Assembly (NCBI RefSeq): GCF_045037415.1
Contig: NZ_CP173438.1
Direction: 5' to 3' (one strand)
From: Escherichia coli
GTDB taxonomy: Bacteria > Pseudomonadota > Gammaproteobacteria > Enterobacterales > Enterobacteriaceae
Length of the DNA stretch: 64,000 nucleotides
The notes under the pieces are model-generated. The model was not told the DNA's origin, searched no databases, and saw nothing but the letters and a program-made list of their open reading frames with translations. The stretch's first letter is position 1, and every line of letters begins with the position of its first letter. The position numbers were made by a program, and so were the translations under genes. This document shows, one piece after another, positions 9,565 through 34,384 of the stretch.

Positions 9565-9640
9565 TGGTGGCCCCTGCTGGACTTGAACCAGCGACCAAGC
9601 GATTATGAGTCGCCTGCTCTAACCACTGAGCTAAGGGGCC
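9565..9640 (-). tRNA. ileX: tRNA-Ile2 (anticodon CAU, lysidine-modified) or elongator-type tRNA with CAU
   Basis: Reverse complement GGCCCCTTAGCTCAGTGGTTAGAGCAGGCGACTCATAATCGCTTGGTCGCTGGTTCAAGTCCAGCAGGGGCCACCA folds as a cloverleaf with 7-bp acceptor stem, CAT anticodon loop, TTCAAGT T-loop and encoded CCA. Confidence 0.9.
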
Positions 9641-29817: not shown

Positions 29818-29897
29818 CTGGAAAGCGGTTCACAGATCTCGCTTCGTAGCAGGCAGGTCTATTGACGCTGTTGTTTTTTCAACCTAAAGTAAAGGAA

Positions 29898-30045
29898 CAA
29901 GGGTAAGGGAGGATTTCTCCCCCCTCTGATGAGTTGTTAGTAAGTCGGGAAACTTAACAGTAACAACACAACCAGTATGATGACGAACTTCATCATAACC
30001 CTTTCCTTCTATAAGGCCCCTTCCTCGGGAGGGGCTTTCCCGTTT
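29898..30045 (+). ncRNA. sib: Sib-type antisense sRNA (type I antitoxin) overlapping ibs; boundaries approximate
   Basis: Located in the hldE-yqiK spacer, fully antisense to the ibs ORF; candidate promoter TTGACG-N17-TAAAGT upstream and GC hairpin plus T-run downstream. Confidence 0.5.
29937..29996 (-). CDS. ibs: Ibs-family type I toxin, 19 aa hydrophobic peptide
   Basis: Reverse strand ATGATGAAGTTCGTCATCATACTGGTTGTGTTGTTACTGTTAAGTTTCCCGACTTACTAA encodes MMKFVIILVVLLLLSFPTY preceded by an AGGAAAGG SD; matches the Ibs toxin pattern. Confidence 0.75.
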   Translation of the reverse strand: MMKFVIILVVLLLLSFPTY

Positions 30046-30235
30046 CAGCCCCTTGCTGACTCCCCGATTGTTGATGAGCGCCGGACCCCGCGCAACGCTT
30101 TCCCAGAGGCAGTTTTGCCTTCCCCGAGCAGTCACGCAAAATGCTGCAACAGCCTGATCATTTGCACCTTTTAGCGGAACGCAGATATAAAAAATCCCCG
30201 GCTTTTTGGGCCAGGGATTATTCATAGAAGAGGGT

Positions 30236-31897
30236 TTACTCTGCTTTTTCTTCGACGGGAGTTGTTGAGCTTAAGGATGAAGTCAATGCCGCCAGTGAGC
30301 CGCCTGAAACGCCAATTTCATTGAGCAAGGAGTCAATCAGCGGTGCCTGTGTGCGGTAAGAGAGTGCGGCTGATAACGCTTGTTCTGCCAGGTTTCCGCC
30401 CCCCACATTACCCGTGTTTGCATCACCCGTAGCGCCGCCACGATTCAGACCATCGACCTGAATAATTTTGATGCCGTCGATAGACTTCATAGGCTCAACG
30501 GATTTCTCAATTACCGCAGGCAGCGCCTGCAATAATGCCAGTTTGAATTTAAGGCTGGTTTGTTCATCAGAAAGTACGTTGATAGCATCGTTCAGCGCAC
30601 GTTGTGCTTCTGCTTCCGCCAGACCCTTTTTACGTGTAGCTTCGGCTAACTCAACGATAGCCGCCGCCTGCATTTCTGCGGCTTCTTTTTCTGCTTTCGC
30701 CCGCACGGTCAGTTCAACCGCTTTGGTTTCTGCATCCTGCGCTGCGGCGATCAACGCCACTTGTTTAGCACGATCGGCTTCGGCAGTCTGGCGAGTGGTT
30801 TCTACGTTTTGTTGGGCGCTTACTGCTTCTGCGAGTGCAAGGTTAGCACGCGCTTCTGCCTGGGACTGTTGTTCCGATTTGGCGGCAATAGCGATCGATT
30901 TCGTCTGGTTAGCGATTTCGGTGACCTGCTGCTGTTCGATCTCTTTAATGCGAACTTCACGTTCGGCCTCAACCTTTCTTGAGCGGACGGCCTGTTCGCG
31001 GTCGATTTCCGTTTCCTGAATCTGTCGTTCAGCCAGAATTCGCGTCTGCTCTGCTTCACGACGACGTTCAGCTTCAAAAGCCGCAATTTTCGCATTCTGC
31101 TCAGCGGTACGGGTTTTAACCTGCTGCTCCTGCTCAAGCGTCATAAACGCTTCTTGTTGTTCAATCTCCAACTTGCGCGAAAGTGCATCACGGTTTTTCT
31201 CACGCACTGCGACTTCCACATCCTGTTCAACTTCGTTACGTTCGCGACGACGGCGCTCCGTCTCCTGAGTCAGTTTGGTTAAACCTTCGGCGTCAAAGGC
31301 ATTGTTCGGATTGAAATGTTCTTTCGAGGTCTGGTTAAAGTTGGTAAGTGAAACGCTTTCCAGTTCCAGGCCATTTTTCGACAGATCTTCAGCTACGGTA
31401 TTTTGTACTCCCTGCACGAAGTTCTCGCGGGTATCCTGTAACTCATGCATGGTCATTTGTGCCGCTGTTGCACGGAGGGCATCGACAAATTTATCTTCCA
31501 CCAGCATACGTAAGTCTTCAGGCGACAGGGTGCGTTGCCCCAGCGTCTGGGCGGCGGTGGCAATCCCTTCTACTGAAGGTTTTACCCGCACAAAGAAAGC
31601 AACCACGACATCGACGCGCATACGATCTTTCGTAATCAGGCTATCAATGGTTGAGCGGCTGACTTCCAGCTTCAGGGTATTCATATTGATGGGAATTATT
31701 TCATGAAAGATCGGCATCACGATTGCGCCACCGCTCATCACCACTTTTTGCCCACTTAAACCAGTACGAACAAATGCTTGCTCTGCCGAAGCGCGACGAT
31801 AGAGCCTGGCGAAAATAATTCCAATAATAAACAGAATGCATACGGCGATAATCGCGGTAAACATCCAGGAGGGCACAGAATTAACGATATCATCCAT
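30236..31897 (-). CDS. yqiK: SPFH/band-7 (flotillin-like) membrane protein with long Ala/Glu/Gln-rich coiled coil
   Basis: 553 aa ORF; N-terminal TM helix, SPFH domain, extended low-complexity coiled-coil region. Confidence 0.88.
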   Translation of the reverse strand: MDDIVNSVPSWMFTAIIAVCILFIIGIIFARLYRRASAEQAFVRTGLSGQKVVMSGGAIVMPIFHEIIPINMNTLKLEVSRSTIDSLITKDRMRVDVVVAFFVRVKPSVEGIATAAQTLGQRTLSPEDLRMLVEDKFVDALRATAAQMTMHELQDTRENFVQGVQNTVAEDLSKNGLELESVSLTNFNQTSKEHFNPNNAFDAEGLTKLTQETERRRRERNEVEQDVEVAVREKNRDALSRKLEIEQQEAFMTLEQEQQVKTRTAEQNAKIAAFEAERRREAEQTRILAERQIQETEIDREQAVRSRKVEAEREVRIKEIEQQQVTEIANQTKSIAIAAKSEQQSQAEARANLALAEAVSAQQNVETTRQTAEADRAKQVALIAAAQDAETKAVELTVRAKAEKEAAEMQAAAIVELAEATRKKGLAEAEAQRALNDAINVLSDEQTSLKFKLALLQALPAVIEKSVEPMKSIDGIKIIQVDGLNRGGATGDANTGNVGGGNLAEQALSAALSYRTQAPLIDSLLNEIGVSGGSLAALTSSLSSTTPVEEKAE

Positions 31898-31923
31898 TAT
31901 TAAATTTCCTTTTGATTAATAAA

Positions 31924-32553
31924 TCACAATATCTGGGGCCAGGGATTATTTTCCGCCAAATATCGCGTTGCAGAAAGTCGGCAAATAATTAACACTTTGT
32001 CTCCTTTAGTGAAAGTTTTTCCTTCTTCAGGCTCCAGTAGCAAATAATGTATTTGGCCAAATTGATCGGTGAGTTTTCCTTCGCAGGGGTTACCTGAAGT
32101 GGCTTGATGGCCGGTAATTAATGCCATGCTACCAACATATTCTTCTTCTGTAATAGCTGAACTATGGTCGCGTGGAATCCAGGGTGCAACGACTTTACCG
32201 GTATAATGCACTGCAATAATTGTAAACAGTAAACTGACAGGAACCACGAACAGGTTGGGGAGTGGTGATTGCCAGAGCGTAACGCAGGCATGTTGCAACA
32301 GGATGCCAATAAGACCAAAAAAACCAGCGAGTAAGCAGAGGACGACGAGAGCTGGCAATCTTCCAATATTGAGATAATGAAGTGCCTGGCTAATATGACC
32401 TGTGGTTATGGAATCATAATGGTCAAGATGTGCATCAAGAGCACCGGAGAGCATGTGACCGCAGATAAGTGCAAAAATTTCTAAAAGGCCGATCAAGAGT
32501 ACAAAGGAAATAGCGAAAAGATAAGGGGTGTTATAGTCGGCGAATAAAATCAT
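31924..32553 (-). CDS. yqiJ: NfeD-like inner membrane protein (partner of the SPFH protein)
   Basis: 209 aa ORF with multiple TM helices and C-terminal OB-fold-like soluble region; immediately upstream of yqiK on the same strand. Confidence 0.85.
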
Positions 32554-32822
32554 ATGTCACTCCAATGTCCATTTAGTGACGCAATATTTACTTTGGAATA
32601 GTTTCCTTGATTACTTTTATCTTTGTTAATAATAACACATGTTTGAGAAGTTCTGGAAGAGAAAGTCTTTTAATATGGTTTTTTTATTTTTCACTAAAAA
32701 GTGTGATCGGGGACAATATATTTACGCACGTTATGTTTAAAGGCACTACACTAATTGGGGAATACTGAAATCAGAAAAAGCATATGGCCTTAAAAGGTAT
32801 GCAATAACCGGAGGATGTGCTT

Positions 32823-33477: not shown

Positions 33478-33730
33478 CGCTTATTCTCAGGGCGGGGCGA
33501 AATTCCCCACCGGCGGTAAATCAACTCAGTTGAAAGCCCGCGAGCGCTTTGGGTGCGAACTCAAAGGACAGCAGATCCGGTGTAATTCCGGGGCCGACGG
33601 TTAGAGTCCGGATGGGAGAGAGTAACGATTCTGTCGGGCATGGACCCGCTCACGTTATTTTGGCTATATGCCGCCACTCCTAAGACTGCCCTGATTCTGG
33701 TAACCATAATTTTAGTGAGGTTTTTTTACC
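33478..33730 (+). ncRNA. sroG: FMN riboswitch (RFN element) in the ribB leader
   Basis: Conserved aptamer segments CAGGGCGGGGCGAAATTCCCCACCGGCGGTAAA ... CCGGGGCCGACGGTTAGAGTCCGGATGGGAGAGAGTAACG directly upstream of ribB. Confidence 0.88.
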
Positions 33731-34384
33731 ATGAATCAGACGCTACTTTCCTCTTTTGGTACGCCTTTCGAACGTGTTGAAAATGCACTGGCTGCGCTGC
33801 GTGAAGGACGCGGTGTGATGGTGCTTGATGATGAAGACCGTGAAAACGAAGGCGATATGATCTTCCCGGCAGAAACCATGACCGTTGAGCAGATGGCGCT
33901 GACCATTCGCCACGGGAGTGGTATTGTTTGCCTGTGCATTACTGACGATCGCCGTAAACAACTCGATCTGCCAATGATGGTAGAAAATAACACCAGCGCC
34001 TATGGCACCGGTTTTACCGTGACCATTGAAGCAGCTGAAGGTGTGACTACCGGTGTTTCTGCCGCTGACCGTATTACGACCGTTCGCGCAGCGATTGCCG
34101 ATGGCGCAAAACCTTCAGATCTGAATCGCCCAGGCCACGTTTTCCCACTTCGCGCGCAGGCAGGTGGTGTACTGACGCGTGGCGGTCATACTGAAGCGAC
34201 TATCGATCTGATGACGCTGGCAGGCTTTAAACCAGCTGGTGTGCTGTGTGAGCTGACTAATGACGATGGCACGATGGCGCGTGCACCAGAGTGCATTGAG
34301 TTTGCGAATAAACACAATATGGCGCTCGTGACTATTGAAGACCTGGTGGCATACCGTCAGGCACATGAGCGTAAAGCCAGCTAA
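33731..34384 (+). CDS. ribB: 3,4-dihydroxy-2-butanone 4-phosphate synthase
   Basis: 217 aa [51 protein letters not shown]... Confidence 0.95.

Follow-up and report, generated by a model that had tools for sequence, protein, structure and literature searches.

Human flotillin-1 and flotillin-2 form a 44-mer cage (PDB 9BQ2, 9L3G; PMC11260169), and in Escherichia coli the SPFH protein QmcA assembles with YbbJ into a 26-mer cage (PDB 8Z5G) according to the two papers that report on that work (Tan et al., 2024, cited in PMC12478178 and PMC13086221). In Staphylococcus aureus, a direct interaction of FloA with NfeD and a stabilization of the oligomer have been shown (PMC11222466). In the S. aureus NfeD-FloA pair, in the YuaF (NfeD2)-FloT (YuaG) pair of Bacillus subtilis, and in yqiJ-yqiK of E. 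coli alike, the NfeD-type gene is situated directly upstream of the flotillin-type gene, whereas eukaryotic flotillins have no such operon partner (PMC11222466). The NfeD2-SPFH2 operon was described by Hinderhofer et al. (2009; PMC2636767), together with NMR data on the C-terminus of YqiJ. Phenotypes known for Gram-positive flotillins are not reproduced in E. coli (PMC10434171).

The window analyzed here, i.e., the whole stretch of 64,000 nucleotides of E. coli DNA, very probably contains just this known chromosomal yqiJ-yqiK operon (NfeD2/SPFH2, bacterial flotillin type). Two ORFs on the minus strand, separated by 26 nt and each preceded by a ribosome binding site, occupy exactly positions 30236-32553 (Table 1), and RefSeq names yqiK (flotillin family protein) and yqiJ on the matching stretch, in agreement with the genes proposed in the initial annotation. 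A consensus scan places a hairpin 3' of yqiK, with a 10-bp stem containing 6 GC pairs and followed by TTTTATATCT, which is a pattern match only. Neighbors of the operon are hldE, a Sib RNA, glgS, ubiK, and an FMN riboswitch upstream of ribB. The locus is the same as that of the NfeD2a-SPFH2a operon of E. coli K-12 (Hinderhofer et al., 2009; PMC2636767), with the same gene order (hldE - Sib/Ibs - yqiK - yqiJ - glgS - ubiK - ribB), protein lengths (553 and 209 aa), and RefSeq names. It differs from the K-12 locus in carrying the B2/ST131-type allele, which shares 93-95% DNA identity with alleles of other lineages, and in having a single adjoining Sib/Ibs module where K-12 has two. The DNA of the window matches ST131-type chromosomes at 100%, the operon is present in all but two (5424/5426) of the complete E. 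coli genomes, and the exact YqiK protein occurs on at least 1000 public contigs, where it is named flotillin family protein or YqiK. The presence of yqiJ-yqiK in the window is therefore ordinary, the operon having been described already and being annotated in every E. coli genome. In one ST131 strain, yqiJ is split by an IS1 insertion. Queries with the wide operon detect extra places per genome, including 31 on plasmids, and a query with the helix only detects 15 extra places, one of which is plasmid-borne.

Table 1. Features of the yqiJ-yqiK locus, with positions in the window.
Feature	Positions	Strand	Basis
yqiJ CDS, 209 aa, NfeD2-type membrane partner of flotillin	31924..32553	-	ORF; Pfam; RefSeq yqiJ; AlphaFold2 pLDDT 90.9
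YqiJ membrane region, residues 6-125, three hydrophobic helices and inserted helical loop	32179..32538	-	AlphaFold2; hydrophobicity
YqiJ C-terminal OB-fold domain, residues 139-202	31948..32139	-	
yqiK CDS, 553 aa + stop, flotillin-family SPFH protein	30236..31897	-	ORF; Pfam Band_7 + Flot; RefSeq yqiK
YqiK N-terminal membrane anchor, residues 4-36	31790..31888	-	hydrophobic segment 4-36; AlphaFold2 helix 10-32
YqiK SPFH / Band 7 domain, residues 44-192	31322..31768	-	Pfam PF01145; homologue profile vs PDB
YqiK long Ala/Glu/Gln/Arg/Lys-rich helix, residues 200-441	30575..31300	-	AlphaFold2/DSSP; composition; indels; dN/dS
(GAGCAG)2 hexanucleotide micro-repeat encoding EQEQ, residues 255-258	31124..31135	-	sequence
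39-nt unit AERRREAEQTRIL, residues 276-288, flanked by 8-nt direct repeat GCTGAACG	31025..31072	-	sequence
15-nt unit encoding AEKEA, residues 402-406, doubled or tripled in some strains	30680..30694	-	indel alleles
YqiK Pfam Flotillin domain, residues 406-530, including Gly-rich disordered stretch 473-502	30308..30682	-	PF15975
Terminator-like hairpin and T-run, 17 nt past yqiK stop codon	30193..30219	-	consensus scan
Antisense ORF, 183 aa	30468..31019	+	ORF list; non-coding by-product
Further antisense ORFs	31275-31706, 31348-31635, 30761-30982	+	ORF list; non-coding by-products

By its sequence, YqiK is a member of the SPFH (Band 7) superfamily. Pfam Band_7 (PF01145) matches residues 44-192 with an E value of 4.1e-18 (66.5 bits against a cut-off of 23.6), which confirms by HMM the SPFH domain that had been proposed for the flotillin-like protein, and Flot (PF15975) matches residues 406-530 with an E value of 2.8e-41 (140.9 bits against a cut-off of 27). 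The AlphaFold2 model has a pLDDT of 79, falling below 50 at residues 473-502. An arginine cluster (R31/R34/R35) directly after the membrane anchor suggests that the body of the protein is cytoplasmic, in agreement with PMC10434171. Although phmmer searches of the PDB with the single sequences of YqiK and YqiJ gave no match, a profile of 70 YqiK homologues matched flotillin-1 (9bq2_B, 9l3g_A) with an E value of 4.6e-15 and stomatin at 7e-4. In a Foldseek search with the YqiK model, chains of the flotillin complex (9l3g, 9bq2) occupy ranks 1-4 (E 2e-15 to 3e-13, spanning 458-501 alignment columns), whereas prohibitin, HflK/C, stomatin, erlin, and QmcA-YbbJ (8z5g, rank 27) follow at lower ranks; SPFH domains 1win and 4fvj are among the matches as well. 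The closest solved relatives of YqiK are thus the subunits of the human flotillin-1/2 cage and not stomatin, prohibitin, or HflK/C. Both share a plan in which the SPFH domain is followed by a long Ala/Glu-rich helix without heptads and by a C-terminal domain that forms the cap and is recognized by Pfam Flot. However, YqiK is anchored by a transmembrane helix, whereas the human flotillins are held by lipidation and a hydrophobic SPFH1 surface. QmcA is of the stomatin type (SPFH1) with a much shorter helix, and FloA of S. aureus is also much shorter than YqiK. With the NCBIfam equivalog model for FloT (NF058507) YqiK scores 89.6 bits, far below the cut-off of 700, which rules it out as an equivalog of Bacillus FloT.

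For YqiJ, Pfam recognizes YqiJ_N (residues 8-115) and YqiJ_OB (residues 139-198). In the AlphaFold2 model, helices cover residues 6-30, 35-47, 53-60, 68-94, and 100-125, with hydrophobic segments at 8-39, 57-94, and 96-119, so that YqiJ has both the N-terminal region of about three hydrophobic helices and the C-terminal five-stranded OB fold that are typical for NfeD proteins. In comparison to short NfeD proteins of 140-150 aa (PMC2636767), an additional helical loop is present at residues 35-60. The first fold-search matches of the OB domain are solved NfeD domains. However, YqiJ does not match Pfam NfeD (PF01957) even at an E value of 10; this model matches none of 64 YqiJ homologues at E 0.01, whereas YqiJ_N and YqiJ_OB are recognized in every one of the 64 aligned partners, and a profile of YqiJ homologues finds nothing among PDB sequences even at E 10. 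YqiJ thus belongs to a Pfam family other than NfeD, and the term "NfeD-like" given to the partner initially is justified solely by its fold and its synteny. As regards synteny, a search for related loci with an alignment of 13 sequences led to a survey of 80 species, and in 74 of the 80 loci a YqiJ homologue is encoded directly upstream of the yqiK homologue on the same strand; two of the six loci without partner lack upstream sequence. The gene pair is kept across Entero-, Beta-, Alpha-, and Deltaproteobacteria. The pairing of an NfeD-type and a flotillin-type protein in a membrane-scaffold operon, as proposed at the outset, is therefore conserved, in accordance with the fold match and with the earlier description (PMC2636767).

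The DSSP assignment of the model shows YqiK residues 200-441 as one continuous helix of 242 residues with a patch of low confidence at 341-350. It contains no proline and two glycines, and the content of A, E, Q, K, and R amounts to 55-70% over residues 200-440 approximately, compared to 20-40% elsewhere. This segment had been called unusually long. However, the A/E/Q/K/R-rich segment of YqiK measures 262 aa, whereas the median in the family is 313, and it is exceeded in 83% of the 121 full-length representatives; only in comparison to the human flotillins, which have a wall helix of 186 residues and share about 20% identity, is the YqiK helix long (PMC11260169). The repeated EAE, AKA, and AEQ units described in the same annotation reflect a compositional bias. 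EAE occurs four times, AKA once, and AEQ four times, two of the latter outside the segment; Tandem Repeats Finder reported nothing at a minimum score of 30, and the longest direct DNA repeats are of 12-15 nt in two or three copies, some of which later proved to be deletion end-points.

The segment had also been called a coiled coil, and one might imagine that it zips dimers or trimers together by classical heptads instead of forming a cage wall. Such a role would suit one long unbroken helix rich in A, E, Q, K, and R, this region of flotillins is named coiled coil in the older literature (PMC2636767), and a study on FloA observed dimers and proposed the coiled-coil region as driver of multimerization (PMC11222466). 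However, Fourier analysis of hydrophobicity along the helix shows no periodicity of 3.5 or 3.67 residues, the power being below that of shuffled sequences. Also, the indels described below prefer neither multiples of 7 (4/56) nor of 11 (2/56), and the closest solved relatives employ the helix in a single-layer parallel barrel without heptads (PMC11260169). The absence of heptad periodicity, as reported for the flotillin wall helix, speaks against the initial term, and we consider the zipper improbable. The biased helix of YqiK is the predicted wall element, normal for the flotillin family, and not a degenerate spacer.

Four ORFs of 183, 143, 95, and 73 aa are located opposite yqiK, and the suggestion that they are spurious is supported by a codon-shuffle null. 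The longest observed antisense run of 185 codons compares to 148 +/- 43 when codons of the whole gene are shuffled and to 175 +/- 33 when only the helix is shuffled, and it is reached by 17.6-30% of the shuffles, as expected for a by-product of codon composition. That one of these frames, e.g., 30468-31019, is a real overlapping gene might be argued from an open frame of 183-185 codons opposite a coding region that is still open in three other alleles (176-228 codons), but the predicted product is of low complexity (Ala/Ser/Cys/Leu) and mirrors the sense codons, RefSeq annotates nothing there, and a consensus scan found no promoter-like site upstream. With equally long frames so frequent among shuffled genes, we give this possibility practically no credence.

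Length alleles of YqiK span 518-566 aa in E. coli, with lengths of up to 575 aa in Salmonella. Among 60 distinct in-frame indel events, drawn from cluster representatives, which over-represent indel variants, 56 map to the helix (residues 200-441; binomial p 4e-16), with the rest of YqiK serving as internal control for position; SPFH and C-terminal parts are avoided. In the control HldE, only 23 close indel variants were found, most of them confined to a single metagenome contig each. Perfect or near-perfect tandem duplications account for 18 of 21 insertions, and deletions show a mean microhomology of 2.9 nt, compared to 1.0 in the null, with microhomologies of at least 5 nt in 23% of deletions versus 2.7%. 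Identical events recur on differing backbones. The 39-nt unit is duplicated exactly in tandem in P0035 and P0044 and deleted exactly in P0064, P0065, P0088, and P0093, with a microhomology of 8 nt. The only true micro-repeat of the segment is (GAGCAG)2, and alleles with one, three, four, or five EQ units are known from E. coli, Shigella, and Salmonella, with as many as 45 residue differences between the backbones. The indels probably arise by replication slippage from short direct repeats and this hexanucleotide micro-repeat.

Such alleles are rare. In a spread sample of 59 genomes, 57 carry exactly the canonical length; by sampling, variant lengths occur in fewer than about 5% of genomes and each allele in 0-0.17%. 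The commonest variant, the AEKEA duplication, is present in 9 of 5426 complete genomes (0.17%), and one exact protein with this duplication is found on 280 contigs. Junction-specific megablast against the 5426 genomes detected no full-length match for the 9-aa deletion and none for (EQ)3; the counts for all three alleles are lower bounds, as the 28-nt seed is interrupted by any SNP in the flank. The AEKEA junction query was clean. The query for the 9-aa deletion gave 2064 partial (67%) matches, many strains carrying a 9-nt instead of an 8-nt repeat, and with the (EQ)3 query only the (EQ)5 strain matched, partially. The prediction that the repetitive segment could be prone to length variation thus holds for the many in-frame indel alleles concentrated in the helix, but the variants are rare and canonical length and sequence are strongly conserved. 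Neither an invariant length nor the lack of an SPFH domain by HMM, which would have spoken against the initial description, was encountered, indel alleles being present and Band_7 being found.

Many in-frame length alleles, a ladder of (EQ)n with n = 1-5, and identical events on differing backbones could also be signs of a contingency-type hypervariable locus with a length switched adaptively between strains. However, this reading is already largely refuted and seems extremely improbable. Apart from (GAGCAG)2 there is no DNA tandem array according to Tandem Repeats Finder, all but two of the 59 genomes sampled evenly are canonical in length, the commonest variant reaches 0.17% with two others at 0/5426, and purifying selection on the sequence is very strong. 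Furthermore, no diversifying pressure is obvious for a body predicted to be cytoplasmic. The rarity of the indels fits a mutation-selection balance on a length that matters.

In YqiK, dN/dS values are 0.002-0.04 for the helix, 0.008-0.03 for the part comprising the transmembrane and SPFH regions, and 0.05-0.16 for the C-terminal part; in YqiJ they are 0.03-0.17. Judged from these substitution ratios, the helix is the most sequence-constrained part of YqiK, more so than the SPFH domain. The idea of a sloppy, register-tolerant spacer was rejected on the same values.

On the other hand, yqiK is frameshifted in 204 of 5426 complete genomes (about 4%), and any function of YqiK is conditional or dispensable. 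Deletion of yqiK caused no phenotype, either alone or in a quadruple SPFH mutant, and at native level no YqiK-GFP could be detected (PMC10434171); YqiK was also undetected in detergent-resistant membranes (PMC6788730). Together with very low native expression (PMC10434171, PMC6788730, PMC2636767) and the IS1 element in yqiJ of one ST131 strain, these observations might suggest that yqiJ-yqiK is a decaying, functionless remnant in which indels reflect relaxed constraint. Such decay is highly improbable, as dN/dS is 0.002-0.04 across most of YqiK and low in YqiJ as well, more than 95% of genomes carry an intact yqiK of canonical length, indels spare the SPFH and C-terminal parts, and the pair is conserved in four groups of Proteobacteria.

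By analogy to its relatives, YqiK probably forms a large cytoplasm-facing cage on the inner membrane. Its SPFH domains would constitute a membrane-proximal ring, the long helices would stand side by side as cage wall, held by charge-charge contacts and not by knobs-into-holes packing, and the C-terminal region would close the cage as a cap. YqiJ probably resides in the enclosed membrane patch, where its OB domain would bind or stabilize the oligomer, a role modeled on YbbJ for QmcA and NfeD for FloA. The cage and the contact with YqiJ are derived from solved relatives sharing only about 20% identity. QmcA-YbbJ of the same organism follows the same logic of a cytoplasm-facing, transmembrane-anchored SPFH protein adjoining an NfeD-type membrane protein with an OB domain, although the gene order is reversed, with qmcA upstream of ybbJ (PMC10434171). 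As YqiK is a single paralogue, any assembly would be a homo-oligomer, unlike that of human flotillin-1/2.

For SPFH complexes, a regression relates the number of subunits to helix length (subunits = 0.1782 x CC1 length + 10.22; PMC12624060). From this, about 53 subunits are expected for the 242-residue helix of YqiK, or about 35 if the helix is broken at residues 341-350, with one subunit gained or lost per 5.6 residues. Natural alleles of yqiK differ from the canonical length by -35 to +13 residues in E. coli, and in Salmonella by as much as +16; for the +5 (AEKEA duplication), -13 (residues 276-288), and -35 (residues 275-309) alleles, the regression would give shifts of roughly 1, 2, and 6 subunits. 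One may speculate, though we regard it as rather doubtful, that the rare alleles are a series of wall-helix lengths forming cages of differing height and subunit number. If this were true, the effect of helix length on cage geometry could be studied in YqiK as a natural test bed, and the conserved canonical length would reflect selection on cage size.

As reported, the operon finding itself matters little. Beyond annotation, three small points emerge, i.e., a constrained helix, a slippage hotspot, and a fixed pseudogene in some genomes. The constraint on an apparently low-complexity helix speaks against regarding segments of this kind as spacers, and agrees with the specific charge networks known from solved flotillin cages. 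In-frame slippage nevertheless makes the helix a mutational hotspot, with indels kept rare by selection, and public genomes therefore hold a ready-made series of length variants, which could be used for testing the proposed link of helix length to cage stoichiometry. Finally, a fixed pseudogene in about 4% of genomes fits the lack of a laboratory phenotype and could help to identify the conditions under which E. coli needs yqiK.

The initial annotation of the two genes as yqiJ and yqiK is borne out by existing annotation, domain hits and neighbours, and the pair is an already known, ordinary object. The two ORFs are 26 nt apart, with a Shine-Dalgarno-like motif ahead of both. ORF and Pfam content places glnE and hldE upstream, glgS and ubiK also adjoin the locus, and this gene content fits the yqiJ-yqiK locus. 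By megablast, the stretch 30100-32700 is found in 5424 of 5426 complete E. coli genomes, ST131/O25:H4-type chromosomes with annotated yqiK and yqiJ matching it at 100%, and the exact YqiK protein of the window is on record in at least 1000 contigs. Some genomes hold two to three places matching this query and 31 places lie on plasmids; a query with only the helix-coding DNA (see table) yields just 15 additional places, of which one is plasmid-borne. In one O25:H4 strain otherwise 100% identical to the window (NZ_AP022326.1), an IS1 insertion splits yqiJ, and an IS1 transposase is annotated between two OB-fold-protein fragments.

Features of the yqiJ-yqiK region (window coordinates) and of the YqiK model (residues)
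Feature	Position	Strand	Basis or remark
yqiJ ORF, 209 aa	31924-32553	-	ORF call, RefSeq annotation
yqiK ORF, 553 aa	30236-31897	-	ORF call, annotated flotillin family protein
Terminator-like hairpin after yqiK	30193-30219	-	sequence pattern
YqiK helix	residues 10-32		AlphaFold2
YqiK alpha/beta SPFH domain	up to residue 189		AlphaFold2
YqiK single continuous helix	residues 200-441 (30575-31300)	-	AlphaFold2; low-confidence patch 341-350
YqiK additional helix	residues 444-471		AlphaFold2
YqiK disordered Gly-rich stretch	residues 473-502		AlphaFold2
YqiK small C-terminal helices	C-terminal part		AlphaFold2
(GAGCAG)2 hexanucleotide	31124-31135	-	EQ ladder, 1 to 5 units
39-nt unit, flanked by GCTGAACG	31034-31072	-	both duplicated and deleted alleles
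AEKEA unit	30680-30694	-	duplicated or triplicated
Sib RNA	29862-30011	+	Rfam SIB_RNA, 142 bits
Ibs toxin ORF, 19 aa, MMKFVIILVVLLLLSFPTY	29937-29996	-	opposite strand to Sib RNA
113-aa ORF	29884-30225	-	most likely spurious
ubiK mechanical ORF, 119 aa	33058-33417	-	true start probably downstream
FMN riboswitch	33479-33627	+	121 bits, upstream of ribB (33731-34384)
tRNA gene	9568-9640	-	

YqiK matches the Pfam families Band_7 (residues 44-192), which confirms the SPFH domain proposed initially, and Flot (residues 406-530). Its AlphaFold2 model, built from 70 diverse homologues (mean pLDDT 79), retrieves chains of the flotillin complexes 9l3g and 9bq2 at the top of a Foldseek search against the PDB (E 2e-15 to 3e-13), followed by prohibitin, HflK/C, stomatin, erlin and the E. 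coli QmcA-YbbJ complex 8z5g. The ranking is unchanged when a sequence profile is used (Flotillin-1, E 4.6e-15). An assignment of YqiK as equivalog of Bacillus FloT was rejected (89.6 bits vs a cut-off of 700 bits).

The long helix had been described as an unusually long coiled coil of repeated units, a description that does not hold. Among the best 150 representatives clustered at 50% identity, the 121 full-length proteins have a median of 573 aa and 77% exceed 553 aa; the A/E/Q/K/R-rich segment comprises 262 aa in YqiK, the median for the family being 313 aa and the longest 671 aa, and giant SPFH2 proteins of 800-1000 aa have been described (Hinderhofer et al., 2009; PMC2636767). Over residues ~200-440, A/E/Q/K/R content is 55-70%, and EAE, AKA and AEQ occur only 4, 1 and 4 times in YqiK; no DNA tandem repeat was found in the biased segment and its direct DNA repeats are 15 nt or shorter. 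The helix contains two glycines and zero prolines and lacks a hydrophobic periodicity of 3.5 residues, resembling in its lack of heptads the 186-residue wall helix of flotillin, in which neighbouring parallel helices make charge-charge contacts (PMC11260169).

For YqiJ, the proposed NfeD-like character rests on predicted fold and synteny but not on the sequence model. YqiJ matches Pfam YqiJ_N and YqiJ_OB, whereas the Pfam NfeD model matches neither YqiJ, even at E 10, nor any of 64 YqiJ homologues at E 0.01. In the YqiJ model (pLDDT 90.9), helices span 6-30, 68-94 and 100-125, a helical loop is inserted, and residues 143-202 fold into a beta domain of five strands. In 74 of 80 loci encoding a YqiK relative, one per different species, a YqiJ homologue lies directly upstream on the same strand, and two of the remaining six lack upstream sequence. 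By model topology and this co-orientation YqiJ is NfeD-like, and the pairing with a flotillin was correctly recognized. It reproduces the NfeD2-SPFH2 operon type that Hinderhofer et al. (2009; PMC2636767) described, who also reported NMR shifts for the YqiJ C-terminus.

The 120 cluster representatives closest to the window's YqiK (identity 90% or higher) range from 518 to 575 aa in length, and almost all carry one in-frame indel in pairwise alignment with the window protein. Of 60 distinct events, 56 map to residues 200-441 (binomial p 4e-16). Insertions duplicate the adjoining sequence in tandem (18/21 perfect or near-perfect), and deletions are flanked by microhomology averaging 2.9 nt vs 1.0 nt for random in-frame deletions, with 5 nt or more in 23% vs 2.7%. 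The same events occur on backbones differing by up to 13-45 residues, Salmonella included, so they are recurrent. Multiples of 7 or 11 are not favoured among the indel lengths. For the neighbouring protein HldE, taken as control, just 23 close representatives differ by an internal indel, mostly on single metagenome contigs, before its list passes to other genera.

Such a representative list over-samples indel variants; canonical sequences merge into a single 13238-member cluster, and every variant forms its own. In an even sample of 60 from 5423 genomes matching the helix DNA, 57 have the exact canonical span, two a 1-nt deletion and one a truncation. With junction-specific queries, 9 of 5426 genomes prove to carry the AEKEA duplication, and neither the 9-aa deletion nor (EQ)3 is detected in any of the 5426. 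Against other E. coli alleles, E. albertii, Citrobacter, Phytobacter and Pseudocitrobacter, dN/dS is 0.002-0.04 for the helix, below that of the globular SPFH domain (0.008-0.03 for TM plus SPFH, residues 1-199), 0.05-0.16 for the C-terminal 112 residues (442-553), which evolve several times faster, and 0.03-0.17 for YqiJ. The amino acid sequence of the helix is thus very strongly constrained. The anticipated proneness to length variation applies to mutation but not to the population, and the best reading is that the helix DNA is prone to slippage while selection keeps its length and sequence.

A 1-nt deletion in codon 241 (about 31175-31177, outside any homopolymer) makes yqiK a frameshifted pseudogene in NZ_CP123024.1 (1174-2834), and searching with 44 nt across the junction detects the same deletion in 204 of 5426 complete E. 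coli genomes; since all 204 matches are 100% identical, this is probably one lineage. The longest antisense open run in yqiK, 185 codons, is reached in 17.6% of whole-gene codon shuffles (148 ± 43) and 30% of helix-codon-only shuffles (175 ± 33). Antisense ORFs are therefore expected by-products of codon composition, and were rightly called spurious.

Between hldE and yqiK, the window has a single Sib/Ibs type I toxin-antitoxin module; many other E. coli have two tandem copies there (~375 bp extra), as seen from two-piece matches in four genomes (H5-H8) and two Ibs genes in four comparison loci (L002, L003, L005, L007). The 113-aa ORF overlaps this module and the yqiK terminator hairpin and has no Pfam hit. 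In ubiK, the UbiK and BMFP models begin at residue 21 and other strains (L001, L002) have a 99-aa call; translation probably starts ~20 codons past the first ATG. The FMN riboswitch and the tRNA gene are ordinary for this chromosomal region. DNA identity of yqiJ plus yqiK to two other E. coli alleles (L002, L005) is 93-95%, that of the ubiK, glgS and hldE flanking segments 94.5-98%, and the 90-95% band of the 30100-32700 search holds 2462 genomes; judged against these flanking genes only, yqiJ-yqiK seems to have diverged somewhat more than they have.

Our analysis establishes domain order, folds, operon conservation, constraint and indel pattern. By analogy with solved relatives, YqiK probably forms a cytoplasm-facing cage in which the SPFH domains make a ring at the membrane, the long helices build the wall and the C-terminal region closes the cap; YqiJ probably sits in the enclosed membrane and binds via its OB domain. 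Precedents are QmcA-YbbJ, for which 26 heterodimers are given where PMC12478178 and PMC13086221 cite it, and FloA-NfeD, with direct interaction and oligomer stabilisation (PMC11222466). Extrapolating the published regression that relates subunit number to CC1 length (y = 0.1782x + 10.22; PMC12624060) would give ~53 YqiK subunits at 242 residues, or ~35 should a break near residue 341 interrupt the helix. Deletion mutants have no phenotype and YqiK-GFP at native level is undetectable (PMC10434171); tagged YqiK is barely seen in membranes and not in detergent-resistant fractions (PMC6788730). To this known locus our study adds minor new points, i.e., a rare in-frame indel hotspot, a low-complexity helix with very low dN/dS, and a lineage-fixed pseudogene.
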